The notes under the pieces were generated by a model. The model saw only the letters and a program-made list of their open reading frames with translations, searched no databases and was not told the DNA's origin. Position numbers and translations under genes: made by a program. DNA of 64,000 bases, taken from assembly GCA_012295275.1 (NCBI GenBank), contig CM022675.1, positions 682,001 through 746,000 of the forward strand. Reading direction: 5' to 3'. How positions within the stretch are numbered: the first letter of the stretch is position 1; each line of letters opens with the position of its first letter. Positions 43,551 through 62,779 of the stretch are shown piece after piece. Origin of the DNA: Chrysomallon squamiferum. Lineage: Eukaryota; Animalia; Mollusca.

Positions 43551-44669
43551 ATGACAACCACGTCGCTGAACTTCTCACAGCTGAACTGTGACTTACCCTA
43601 CGGGTTCTACCCGCCTCCGTTTTACAGCAAACCAGTCAGAATGCTGATCACGTCAGTGCTGACGTTGTTTCTCCTCGTGTGTGTGAGCGGCAACCTCGTG
43701 CTAATCGCTGCCATCTCGACCAGCAAGTTAATCAAGTCTAGAACCAACATGTTCGTGACGTCACTCGCCGTGGCAGACCTGGGCGTGGCTGTTCTCGTGA
43801 TGCCGTTCGGCATCTACCAGCAGGCCACGAACAAGAAATGGCTGCTGGGAGAAACGACGTGCCTCGTTGCCACCAGCCTGGACGTGATGTTGTGCACGGT
43901 GTCGATACTTCACCTGAGCTGTCTGGCTGTGGACCGCTACCTCGCGATCTGTCACCCGTTCTACAACGAGTCGTTGACGACGCGCTACTCCATTGTGATG
44001 ATCGCAGTCTGCTGGACAGCTCCACTTTTTATCTCTTTTCTCCCACTCATGAACAGGTGGAATACCATCGGCCTGGAGGAAATGTTGCAGTGTGCTCAGA
44101 TGCCCAAACACACCTGCGTCTTCGTCGTCAACGCCGAGTTCGCTTACGTCGGCTCCATCATCGCCTTCTACATTCCGACCTGCTTCATGTGCTACTGCTA
44201 CTGGCGGATCTACCTGTGCGCGCGGACGCAGAGGCTGCACATTCGCCGCATGAGCTCGTCGTTCATGCTGCAGCACCAGAAGAAGGAGAGAAAAGCCGCG
44301 AAGACTCTCGGCATCGTGATGGGCTGTTTCTGCGTGTGCTGGTTCCCCTTCTTCATCTTCAACGTCGTCGACCCTCTCGTTCGTTACAAAATCCCTTACG
44401 TTCCGTGGACCGTGGCGCTCTGGCTTGGCTACGTCAACTCGTTGATGAACCCGTTTCTGTATTACACTTTCAACAGACACTACAGGAACGGTTTCCGCAA
44501 GATGCTGTGTCATGCGAGGGAACGCTCCTCCGTGACGCAGCTTCAGACTTCCGTTACATACGTACTCAGCCAGGGACCGGCTCACTTCCTTCACAGAGCT
44601 GCTTCCGCGCAGCCTCACGTTCGGCCACGACTGCGCCCCGTCCCTCGCGTTGGAACAAAGACCACGTGA
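43551..44669 (+). CDS. R1: intronless 5-HT4-like aminergic GPCR
   Basis: 7 TM; SLAVAD, D3.32 in SLDVMLC, DRY, AFYIP, KAAKTL, CWFPFF, WLGYVNS..NPFLY; first ATG at 43551. Confidence 0.93.
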   Translation: MTTTSLNFSQLNCDLPYGFYPPPFYSKPVRMLITSVLTLFLLVCVSGNLVLIAAISTSKLIKSRTNMFVTSLAVADLGVAVLVMPFGIYQQATNKKWLLGETTCLVATSLDVMLCTVSILHLSCLAVDRYLAICHPFYNESLTTRYSIVMIAVCWTAPLFISFLPLMNRWNTIGLEEMLQCAQMPKHTCVFVVNAEFAYVGSIIAFYIPTCFMCYCYWRIYLCARTQRLHIRRMSSSFMLQHQKKERKAAKTLGIVMGCFCVCWFPFFIFNVVDPLVRYKIPYVPWTVALWLGYVNSLMNPFLYYTFNRHYRNGFRKMLCHARERSSVTQLQTSVTYVLSQGPAHFLHRAASAQPHVRPRLRPVPRVGTKTT

Positions 44670-46689
44670 AACACAGATAATTACTACGAATGCTCTTGGA
44701 GTTATCTAATAATTATCATTATTTCAGAATCCTCGTTCCTATGTGTGTGTGTTTGGAAATTTCCATAGATAAATTCATTATTAGGAGGTTTTCACTTTAG
44801 TCATACACAACTGTACTGATACTAATATGATTTAGCCGATGTGTTAGTAAATGCTCATGTGACTTATTATTATTATTATTATTTAGTTTGTTTGTTTTTG
44901 TTTCGCAATTATTTTATATTTTTTATTATTATTATTATTATTATTATTATTATTATTATTATTATTATTATTATTATTATTATAAATATCTCTTAGACAA
45001 TACACATACACGTACGTGTCTAAATAGGCCCACTTAGAAATCAAAATTCTACGCTTTTCATTTAACGCACAAAGGTGTCTTTCCGTGGCGGATATACTGA
45101 CAGTATGTAACTGGATATATATTTTTTTTATCAACTAACCTAAAACCGTCCCATGTATCTGTTAAAAATCTCTGATATCTATGAAAAAATATTAGTGCAG
45201 TGTAAATAGAAATCGCGCGAATGACACTCAAAATGGAAAAGAAAAACAATTATCGAGACTACAGTTATGAAGAAACAAATGATCGAGACATAGCAACTGT
45301 AGCTAATAGGGATTAAAGGTTTCTGTTACTGTTCAGGTACGCTTGGGATCTACAGTACTTACACTAGAAAGTTTTAAAATGTTCTTACCATGTTGAACAT
45401 AGACATTAGTTATATTTTACGTAAATATTCGGCTGGTTTATAAACTTATAATGATAAATGTATAATTTTTTTTTTTTTTTTTTATTTTATTATTATTATT
45501 ATTATTATTATTATTATTATTATTATTATTATTATTATTATTATTATTATTATTATTTATTTATTTATTTATTTATTTATTGGTTCCTTTTAATATTATA
45601 TCAACAGAGTTGAAAAGAATAAGGATTATGTTATTTGACGTATATTTTTTATTCGATTACCTCCCTTTCATTTAACGTAGCGTATTGGTGGTCTGATAAA
45701 CGTATAAAAAACGTGGATAGACACACATACACACACACATACAGACACACACAAACACACACACACAGAGACACGCTCGATAAATACTCTATGTGACTAG
45801 CAGACATTGGTATTTAATACATACCTTCCCATAGTCTGTTGATTTCATTTCACAGTTTCTGATAAGACCGTCACTGACTGAACAGGAGAAAAGGGCAACT
45901 GAAGCTCTAAGAAGGCTTGAACTTGTGTCCGCATATTTATTTATTTATTTGTAGTTATTGTAATATACGTATATTACACACATACATATATACATACATA
46001 CTTACATCCGTTTATCTTTCTAACATGTTGAAACTTAATCTGTATATGGCTAGAGTCATATAATATTGTATTATACTAATATCATTTTTGTTGAGTTTCT
46101 TTTTGTATTTTCGTGTGTGTTTTTTTTTTTTTCGTTTTTAATTACACTATAAAATTAATAAAAGCCGTAACGAGCAGTGTAAATTCAGCATAAGTAAGTC
46201 AACAAAATAAAATATTATAAAATAAAATAAAATTAAAACGTATTTGTCTATAAACGAGAGAGAGAGAGAGAGAGAGAGAGAGAGAGAGAGAGAGAGAGAG
46301 AGAGAGAGAGAGAGAGAGAGAGAGAGAGAGAGAGAGAGAGAGAGAGAGAGAGATTAGCTTTACATAAAACAGAATATGCATTTCAGTAAAAGGATAATTT
46401 TTACATGTTATAAAATAATGACAAGAACACCACAGACACCAAAGAAATAAATATATTAACGTAAAATTAATTTATACAAAATCAGTTATTCACTTCTTTG
46501 TTGAAGGAAAGACAAAGTCTCGAGTCTTTTGATTTTATCAGATTAGAAATTGTTGAATCATTTCTGTTGTTTGTATCAGACTAATGGATGGTGAAGTAAA
46601 TGGAAATATCAGAAAAGAATCTCTGGGTGTAATTATATCAGTCCAAATAGATGAAAAATCACTGAATGGTTTGTTATGTCAGAAATCTT

Positions 46690-47542
46690 TGAATTATCAG
46701 TTTTCATCACAGGATAAATAGTTGAATTTCTTGGTTTTCATCACAAATTGAATTACATTTTTTTTAAATCTCAAGATAAATAGTTGAATTATTTGTTTTA
46801 TCACAAGATAAATAGTTGAATTATTTGCTTTCATCACAAGATATATATTTGAATTACTTGTTTTCACCACAAAGATAAATATTTGAATTATTTGTTTTCA
46901 TTACAAGATAAATATTTGAATTAGTTGTTTTCATCACAAGTTGAATATTTGAATTATTTGCTTTCATCACAAGATAAATATTTGAATTAGTTGTTTTATT
47001 CACAAGTTAAATATTTGATTTATTTGTTTTCATCACAAGAAAAATATTTGAATTACTTGTTTTTATCACAAGATCAATATTTGAATTACTTGTTTTCATC
47101 ACAAGATAAATATCTGAATTACTTGTTTTCGTCACAAGATAAATATTTGAATTACTCGTTTTCATCACAAGATAAATATTTGAATTACTCGTTTTCAATC
47201 ACAAGATGAATGTTTGAATTACTTGCTTTCATCACAAGATGAATGTTTGAATTACTTGCTTTCATCACAAGATGAATGTTTGAATTACTTGCTTTCATCA
47301 CAAGATGAATGTTTGAATTACTCGTTTTCAATCACAAGATGAATGTTTGAATTACTTGCTTTCATCACAAGATGAATGTTTGAATTACTTGCTTTCATCA
47401 CAAGATGAATGTTTGAATTACTTGCTTTCATCACAAGATGAATGTTTGAATTACTCGTTTTCAATCACAAGATGAATGTTTGAATTACTTGCTTTCATCA
47501 CAAGATGAATGTTTGAATTACTTGCTTTCATCACAAGATGAA
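46690..47542. repeat. 33-bp minisatellite (CAAGATGAATGTTTGAATTACTTGCTTTCATCA) overlapping the R2 stop
   Basis: About 25 units; homogeneous from 47200, more diverged toward 46690. Confidence 0.93.
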
Positions 47543-61448: not shown

Positions 61449-61513
61449 AAGGTTTACTAAGGAAATGAACATAACAGACTTCGCCATTGGAAACCAGTGA
61501 AATAGATTTTACT

Positions 61514-62779
61514 ATGAAAATGAACACAACGGACTTTTCGTCAATGAACAGGACATCTAAAGAGGAATTTTGTAAAGGGGTACTCTCAAGCACAGAATCC
61601 CCGCCTCCAAGTTTAAGCAAAGACACGCGGATCATAATAACAGTCTTGTTGAGTGTTGTCGTTCTGCTTGGAATTGTGGGAAACGTACTGGTTATCCTGG
61701 CTGTGAGAATGTCGTCTAGGACGCTTTCTCTCACCCTCGTCTTCATCATCTCGCTGGCCACCGCAGACCTGGGCGTTGCCGTCTTGGTGATGCCGTTCGA
61801 CATTTACAGACAGTACAACAACGGCGTGTGGGAACTCGGAGAAAACGTGTGTCTCGTCGTCAGCAGCCTGGACATCATGCTGTGCACGTCGTCGATTTAT
61901 CACTTGTGCTGCCTCGCTTTCGATCGCTATCTTACCATCTGCCTGCCGTTCGTTCGTCTACACATGTCAGAAATGGGAATGGAGGCGTTGCTTGTAATCG
62001 TTTGGGTGGTGCCCGCGGTTCTGTCGTTCGGTCCCTTGTTCCAGAAGTGGAATATTATTGGAATAGAAGACATGGTTGACTGCATTAAATTTTTCTCTGA
62101 CAACAAAGCATGCATGCTTCTGGTCAACAAGGAGTTCGCTCTCATAGGTTCTTCCATTTCTTTCTTTATCCCCATCGTCTTCATGGCAGTGATGAACTGG
62201 AAAATCTACAGAACGGCCATTATTCACATCGAGCGTATTAAGAAAATCGACAGGAATCCGCTGTACCTGCGAGACACCCAGGCCGCCAAGACGCTGGGGA
62301 TCATCATGCTGTGCATCAGCGTCTGCTGGTTTCCTTTCTTCATCTGCAACGTCATCGACCCGCTTACAGGCTACGGCATTTCGGGCGAGGTGTGGTCGAC
62401 TGTGCTGTGGCTGGGCTACATCAACTCCGTGATCAATCCGTTTCTCTACTACGCGTTCAATCGTTCGCTGAGAAGCTCTTTCCACAGGATGCTGCCGGAA
62501 TGCTGTGGCTGCCGCGAACAGAAGCCAAAGAGGTCGTCGTCACTGACAGTGACGGCGTCCGTGTCCTCGCAGTCGCAGTTTCCCAGTCGTGTGTTGCCGG
62601 GACATCTGGAACATTTCCAAAAGGCGATGAAAACGAAGGAAAGTGCCAGTGTGATTACTTTACACAGCAACGTTAGCTTCCACAACGTCACGCCGCAGGT
62701 GGACGACAGCGAGGCCCCTGCTAATTCCGCGGAGCTGCACGTGCCGCCGTTGCGTGGTTCACATCCTTCTAATAAATAA
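61514..62779 (+). CDS. R6: intronless 5-HT4-like aminergic GPCR (most divergent)
   Basis: 7 TM; SLDIMLC, DRY, SFFIP, QAAKTL, CWFPFF, NVIDP, WLGYINSVINPFLY; ATG at 61514. Confidence 0.94.
   Translation: MKMNTTDFSSMNRTSKEEFCKGVLSSTESPPPSLSKDTRIIITVLLSVVVLLGIVGNVLVILAVRMSSRTLSLTLVFIISLATADLGVAVLVMPFDIYRQYNNGVWELGENVCLVVSSLDIMLCTSSIYHLCCLAFDRYLTICLPFVRLHMSEMGMEALLVIVWVVPAVLSFGPLFQKWNIIGIEDMVDCIKFFSDNKACMLLVNKEFALIGSSISFFIPIVFMAVMNWKIYRTAIIHIERIKKIDRNPLYLRDTQAAKTLGIIMLCISVCWFPFFICNVIDPLTGYGISGEVWSTVLWLGYINSVINPFLYYAFNRSLRSSFHRMLPECCGCREQKPKRSSSLTVTASVSSQSQFPSRVLPGHLEHFQKAMKTKESASVITLHSNVSFHNVTPQVDDSEAPANSAELHVPPLRGSHPSNK

Follow-up and report, generated by a model that had tools for sequence, protein, structure and literature searches.

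Six tandem 5-HT4 receptor paralogues of the vent snail Chrysomallon squamiferum as probable internal serotonin or tryptamine receptors

The tandem expansion of the serotonin receptor gene HTR4 (5-HT4) in peltospirid vent snails is already published. For Chrysomallon squamiferum Zeng et al. 2020 reported 12 HTR4 copies and for Gigantopelta aegis 18, with tandem duplications, and they speculated on a nervous-system role (PMC7736800). Lan et al. 2021 counted 24 copies in Gigantopelta and 12 in Chrysomallon vs. 0–3 in 16 other taxa, and listed HTR4 among immunity-related expansions (PMC7895826), and Supplementary Data 1 of Sun et al. 2020 lists two HTR4-like groups confined to Chrysomallon, one with 5 members and one with 4 (PMC7142155). 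In the portions available to us, the publications on this expansion provide counts, a tree and speculation on the nervous system and immunity, without a pocket analysis, conversion tracts, introns in untranslated regions (UTRs) or a chemosensory reading. Here we describe six such paralogues (copies 1–6) that lie in tandem on contig CM022675.1 of the C. squamiferum assembly GCA_012295275.1, in a 64-kb stretch (positions 682,001 to 746,000 of the forward strand) that we call the window and number from its first letter. To the published picture we add the ancestral state of the single coding exon, a serotonin pocket that is kept and apparently homogenised within the array, and a pocket that is remodelled in other peltospirid copies.

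The array shares with vertebrate TAARs and lamprey TARLs a derivation from htr4, a clustered arrangement and a mostly mono-exonic structure (for the TAAR side, PMC8032801), and with TAAR-like arrays in general its clustering, single coding exon and lineage-specific multiplication. Unlike these families it has a separate origin (approximately unbiased (AU) test, P = 0.0006) and lacks the TAAR fingerprint; olfactory expression and remodelled pockets have been demonstrated for TAARs and TARLs. The TARL and TAAR1 genes of jawed fish are likewise htr4-derived and are still tuned to tryptamine-type ligands (PMC8890504), but they are low-copy vertebrate genes and the array consists of multi-copy snail genes. 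Also close are the single-copy molluscan 5-HT4 receptors of Aplysia (NP_001240691), Haliotis, Patella and Littorina, which fall into the same clade and whose pocket lies within 0–4 changes of that of the array. The array differs from them in copy number, in longer branches, in a third intracellular loop (ICL3) that is 3–14 residues shorter and in unrelated C-terminal tails.

Array layout and receptor family

An open reading frame (ORF) scan of the window returned six intact single-coding-exon G protein-coupled receptor (GPCR) ORFs of 356–421 aa, each of which covered the Pfam 7tm_1 profile essentially end to end (E ≤ 2e-49). This bears out an earlier note, made from the letters alone, that had proposed six intact single-exon class A GPCR ORFs in the strand order +, −, −, −, +, +. 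Copy 1 occupies 43551..44669 (+, 372 aa), copy 2 47518..48666 (−, 382 aa, its stop codon lying inside a 33-bp tandem repeat at 46684–47542), copy 3 51342..52463 (−, 373 aa counted from the first ATG, with an alternative ATG near 52370 that matches the start positions of copies 4 and 5 in the alignment), copy 4 54908..55978 (−, 356 aa), copy 5 57360..58523 (+, 387 aa, head-to-head with copy 4) and copy 6 61514..62779 (+, 421 aa). The start codons of copies 4 and 5 are separated by 1.4 kb (55979–57359), and the two genes may share a promoter. A tblastn search of the window gave neither a seventh copy nor a fragment of one. Long antisense and alternate-frame ORFs across copies 1 and 2 were taken as shadows of codons rich in G or C at the third position (GC3 0.53–0.77).

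Pairwise protein identity among the six is 42–74%, and the alignment confirmed the divergent N- and C-termini described by the earlier note, the C-terminal tails being unrelated to those of single-copy molluscan 5-HT4. Of the 15 copy pairs, 9 had a computable synonymous distance (dS) and gave ratios of nonsynonymous to synonymous substitution (dN/dS) of 0.10–0.28, dS being saturated in the other 6. The copies are shown by these ratios to evolve under purifying selection, and are therefore old and constrained.

The best match of the array proteins among solved structures was human 5-HT4 (238 bits, runner-up 194), neither 5-HT6 nor 5-HT7 appearing among the best 60 such matches, and the top database matches were molluscan 5-HT4 receptors, those of Gigantopelta aegis and Haliotis first, with best identities of 45–61%. 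A maximum-likelihood (ML) tree of 63 rows was built under LG+G4 with named TAAR, beta-octopamine, D1, H2, beta-adrenergic, 5-HT1 and tyramine receptor rows and no named 5-HT6 or 5-HT7. All six copies fell inside the spiralian 5-HT4 clade (support 100/99), in agreement with the 5-HT4 ancestry first suggested from motifs, and an HTR4 + TAAR clade (100/99) left out the beta-octopamine, D1, H2, beta-adrenergic, 5-HT1 and tyramine rows. The six are thus spiralian 5-HT4 paralogues. An identity as octopamine receptors was rejected on the position of the beta-octopamine rows outside the HTR4 + TAAR clade, and no one-to-one orthology across phyla was seen. Membership of the vertebrate TAAR/TARL group was also rejected, the forced grouping having a p-AU of 0.000583; the expansion is therefore independent of vertebrate TAARs, as had been proposed. 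The TAAR fingerprint after the seventh transmembrane helix (TM7), scored with a pattern that we take to be that of the family, was found in 0 of 6 copies, whereas Bufo TAAR4 and Erpetoichthys TAAR1 both have it. The Y and W positions of this fingerprint are described in PMC8032801.

Under LG+G4, branching within the spiralian clade was poorly resolved, and the six fell outside the group of conserved gastropod genes. A mixture-model tree was considered for 29 rows; deuterostomes, the longest rows of Gigantopelta (P0157, P0204) and the greater part of a second subfamily described below were not among them. Copies 1–5 and Gigantopelta XP_041371787 formed one clade (100/99) and copy 6 with three Gigantopelta copies another (97/95), both nested in a gastropod clade (95/91) and apart from the short-branch conserved gene of Gigantopelta and Haliotis. 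Since both subclades are common to the array and Gigantopelta, the two lineages of the array are older than the split from that genus. Monophyly of the six together with five Gigantopelta paralogues and the conserved gene of that snail was neither rejected nor shown (p-AU 0.18). The array-related Gigantopelta copies, members of both subclades, all lie on one contig of 35.4 Mb, and the conserved Gigantopelta 5-HT4 lies on another, chromosome-scale contig of 91.7 Mb. Duplicates of 5-HT4 were also seen in other molluscs: scallops and mussels have a second, divergent gene, and Ruditapes has a pair of adjacent accessions on one contig (P0290, P0376, P0028/P0052).

Ligand pocket and gene conversion

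The residues D3.32, S5.43, W6.48, F6.51, F6.52, N6.55 and W7.40, from which an indole- or aryl-amine pocket had been proposed, are present in all six copies, and an indole-amine-type pocket is supported. Including C5.42, A5.46 and Y7.43, the 5-HT4 pocket set is kept save for G5.42 in copies 1, 5 and 6, F7.43 in copy 3 and S5.46 in copy 6. We compared 16 orthosteric positions with Aplysia 5-HT4 as the reference, using aminergic-receptor numbering anchored on the alignment. Copies 1–6 showed 1, 0, 1, 1, 2 and 4 changes, respectively, against 0–3 in conserved spiralian orthologues, 7 in Bufo TAAR4 and 8 in a lamprey TAAR365-like protein. The single change of copy 1 is G5.42; copy 4 bears S2.59, S3.37 and Y5.38, and copy 5 bears Y45.52. 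A fish protein that groups with TARL/TAAR1 in the tree (its source name is HTR4, the TARL label coming from the tree) had 1 of 16 positions changed and so resembles copies 1–5. Guo et al. report a common aromatic-amine profile for HTR4, TAAR1 and the TARL of jawed fish, and expression of all three in the brain (PMC8890504).

Other peltospirid copies present a different picture. Pocket diversity is low in copies 1–5, weak in copy 6 and high in Gigantopelta, where 11 of 12 full-length paralogues are altered at 5–12 of the 16 positions and Asp3.32 is absent from 5 of 13 rows (one of them partial). Copy 6, which belongs to the separate subclade, carries R2.64 and D2.61 in addition to its four changes; its three Asp3.32-less Gigantopelta clade-mates have D or E at position 2.61, which we take to face the pocket. 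A second, older 5-HT4-derived subfamily (P0287, P0288, P0385–P0393, P0204, P0154) occurs in Haliotis and Gigantopelta and is expanded in the latter. Its members have R2.61, mostly with E2.64 and K7.35, in a strongly remodelled pocket, and they would be better chemoreceptor candidates than the six array copies. Some of them are automatically named TAAR13c-like, D2-like or Oamb-like in RefSeq.

The vertebrate-5-HT4 motifs listed by the earlier note were found to be less uniform than the pocket. NxxDP is present in 6/6 copies, while ISFxPIMxxWNxIGI occurs in 3/6, CVFxVNK in 2/6, CSxxAFYIP in 3/6, ETKAAKTLCIIMGCF in 1/6 and WLGYINS in 2/6. The ICL3 is indeed very short, the distance from 5.50 to 6.50 being 52–57 residues; with 60–66 residues in conserved gastropod 5-HT4 and 68–96 in four vertebrate HTR4 proteins, this is mostly a family trait.

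The case for exchange between copies was made from patchy identity together with a shuffle test on the 15 pairs. Over a tract at 47762..48447 (−), copy 2 is patchily near-identical to copy 3 (51466–52151): DNA identity reaches 97–98% in blocks over TM2 and the first extracellular loop (ECL1), over TM4-ECL2-TM5 and over TM7, vs. 48–67% in blocks over TM1/ICL1, ICL2 and ICL3. In one run, 39 synonymous-capable codons are identical between the two copies, a length that 0 of 3000 shuffles attained. This pair alone was clearly significant, four others giving P values of 0.016–0.036, uncorrected. The tracts of copies 2 and 3 are likely to be the product of gene conversion, and we infer that conversion may have acted among copies 2–4. 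The best reading of this pattern is that conversion would preserve similarity on the ligand side and leave the cytoplasmic side to diverge, opposite to what is seen in odorant receptors. Because the pocket is near canonical and appears homogenised between copies 2 and 3, tuning of the six to odorants is disfavoured.

Function of the copies and of the wider family

Overall, we consider it probable that the array consists of tandem 5-HT4 paralogues serving as internal receptors for serotonin or tryptamine, with copies that differ in expression and regulation more than in ligand. This role is favoured over that of a smell-receptor family because the ordinary serotonin-binding residues are kept. 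Judging from the pocket, the products would still bind serotonin or tryptamine, and they would signal through Gs and cyclic AMP (cAMP) inside the body, their use being internal rather than sensory. The copies would have diverged in site of expression and in regulation more than in what they bind. The coupling is that of the family at large, as serotonin raises cAMP via Gs for vertebrate and invertebrate 5-HT4 (PMC4007640).

Several points weigh against this proposal. Clustering, long branches and copy-number turnover are typical of chemoreceptors, and the array branches in the mixture-model tree measure 0.25–1.4 vs. 0.18 for the conserved Gigantopelta gene. The pocket comparison is confined to 16 positions picked by aminergic-receptor numbering, and N-termini and ECL2 vary in copies 1, 5 and 6. 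The basic ICL3 motif of the conserved gene is lost in the array copies, so that coupling may have changed. A serotonin-type pocket would not prevent a receptor from being displayed in a sensory epithelium, and neither a ligand assay nor a tissue map for the six copies was found in the literature.

The alternative that survives best is that the array forms part of an invertebrate parallel to the TAARs, in which sensory epithelia have come to use 5-HT4 copies for detecting amines in the water; we regard it as unlikely for these genes. Twice in vertebrates, olfactory families arose from HTR4 (PMC8032801). The expansion in peltospirids is large by comparison with other taxa (PMC7895826), and the remodelled Gigantopelta pockets, with their lost Asp3.32 and the R2.61 subfamily shared with Haliotis, are what such a history might leave. 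Copy 6, with an extra acidic residue at 2.61 and a place among Asp3.32-less copies, fits it best of the six. The 0–2 pocket changes of copies 1–5, the conversion-like homogenisation and the missing fingerprint speak against it. No sensory-tissue expression data were found in the literature, and the tissue lists that we searched covered the oesophageal gland, mantle and scale epithelium, with no tentacle or osphradium list among them. The Chrysomallon mantle list contained one 5-hydroxytryptamine 'receptor-like' gene of unstated subtype. Nor was a proposal of a chemosensory or TAAR-like role found in the literature, although closed-access work or supplements that could not be read may contain one; the main text of the lophotrochozoan GPCR paper of Nath et al. 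makes no mention of serotonin, 5-HT, HTR or TAAR.

From these residues a chemoreceptor role appears less likely for the six. The idea of a TAAR parallel survives for the family as a whole, copy 6 and the remodelled subfamilies being its more promising subjects. In its broad form, htr4 would have been recruited to amine chemosensing a third time, now in an invertebrate, through the peltospirid 5-HT4 family, which would sense vent water or symbiont amines, with the array caught mid-process, copies 1–5 being serotonin-like and copy 6 shifting; this is speculative, and we give it only slightly more credit than a sensory role for the array itself. In the subclade of copy 6, the gain of an acid at 2.61 and, among the Gigantopelta members, the loss of Asp3.32 would form a two-step shift like that of the teleost clade III TAARs, which gained Asp5.42 and lost Asp3.32. 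Were the family chemosensory, htr4 would have given rise to amine detectors on separate occasions in jawed vertebrates, in lampreys and in snails, and vent biology would have its first candidate amine receptors. The split between canonical and remodelled pockets guides the choice of copies for assay.

We find it less credible again that the copies are internal sensors of amines from or around the bacterial symbionts of the oesophageal gland. Three of 28 HTR4-annotated Gigantopelta genes are on the list of genes highly expressed in this symbiont-housing gland (log2 fold changes of 7.2, 6.2 and 4.4; PMC7895826 Supplementary Data 2), two of the three coming from one four-gene cluster (ctg520). 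This shows internal expression of some Gigantopelta HTR4 copies, which also counts in favour of the internal role proposed above. The same organ is high in a copper amine oxidase (10.6) as well as in monoamine oxidase B (1.9). The immunity-related listing by Lan et al. (PMC7895826) points the same way, and both RNA runs that contain the array (X7 and X9) are labelled metatranscriptomic. However, 1782 of 21,438 Gigantopelta genes (8.3%) are gland-high, from which about 2.3 of the 28 would be expected, and enrichment as a family-wide signal was rejected. The ctg identifiers of the Gigantopelta genes could not be matched to the array-related paralogues; in Chrysomallon itself, the gland list in the available supplement of PMC7142155 held no 5-hydroxytryptamine-annotated gene. 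The Gigantopelta gland is also high in a 'histamine H4 receptor', a tyramine beta-hydroxylase-like gene and an octopamine beta receptor, which suggests active amine signalling in the symbiont organ (PMC7895826).

Coding exon, transcripts and the rest of the window

To place the single coding exon in its family, we draw on a scan of metagenome contigs, taken as genomic DNA by inference from their collection and lengths. Among 79 loci, the best group comprised 7 with E ≤ 1e-100, all invertebrate 5-HT4 relatives, and all 7, including those on contigs of 8.6 kb and 14.1 kb, have an unbroken frame of 354–412 aa, as the array copies do. A fish HTR4 locus (L008) yielded a partial piece only. Dieris et al. 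found acorn-worm htr4 to be mono-exonic and favoured a mono-exonic htr4 ancestor (PMC8032801); the razor-clam 5-HT receptor paper contained no statement on gene structure. A single coding exon is thus the usual and ancestral state of invertebrate 5-HT4, and it is therefore not diagnostic of a TAAR-like array.

Contigs of RNA and DNA runs were compared with 50400–56100, copies 2 and 5 being reached via cross-matching contigs only; run X10 (organism B) gave pieces of only 46–62 letters and was not used. RNA-library contigs exist for copies 2–5: contigs of both X7 and X9 match copy 4 without a single difference, and X7 contigs bear diagnostic bases of copies 2 and 5, that of copy 5 being 1554 nt long. 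Contig depth in these runs cannot rank expression, and carry-over of DNA may account for unspliced pieces.

Upstream of copy 3, X7 contig 19 marks a likely non-coding exon at 53074..53296 (−). It stops at 53074 on an AAG|GTA donor, of which there are 2 in 1981 nt, and borders a predicted 5′-UTR intron at 52720..53073 (−) with an AAG|GTACAG donor and a pyrimidine tract with CAG acceptor, the joined form not being seen. For copy 4, X7 contig 22 (786 letters) fits 55469–56037, after which its last 217 letters no longer follow the genome, whereas DNA run X1 carries on past this point. The departure point is the sole strong acceptor in the 700 nt upstream of this copy, a pyrimidine tract with TAG at 56037..56060 (−), 59 nt upstream of the ATG; here too the joined form was not seen. 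Copies 3 and 4 are thus likely to keep 5′-UTR introns and to give real transcripts, and the description of the array as intronless holds for its coding sequence and not for its transcripts.

The array would then have arisen by DNA-level tandem duplication of a 5-HT4 gene that already had a single coding exon. Derivation from a separate parent gene with introns, through their loss or through retroposition, as the earlier note had suggested, can draw on the separate location of the conserved Gigantopelta gene, by which one translocation occurred, but it is largely refuted and very improbable given the 7/7 unbroken frames, the mono-exonic acorn-worm gene and the likely 5′-UTR introns, and it is unnecessary because invertebrate 5-HT4 is already single-coding-exon.

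Elsewhere in the window, six tRNA genes lie at 17982–23207, one tRNA-Asp(GTC) and five tRNA-Ile(AAT). An exon of a multi-exon WD40-repeat gene, presumably resembling WDR37, was found near 34870–34986 (+), and long low-complexity exons of other genes, with no Pfam match, at 9253–10668 (−) and 386–1357 (−). Besides the repeat at the end of copy 2 (46684–47542, 33 bp), minisatellites occur at 61188–61448 (35 bp) and at the window end (63228–64000, 22 bp). A high-copy dispersed repeat at about 53560–53840, between copies 3 and 4, reached a summed contig depth of ≤75,000 in DNA run X1, and from its ends, which resemble inverted repeats, it is possibly a miniature inverted-repeat transposable element (MITE).

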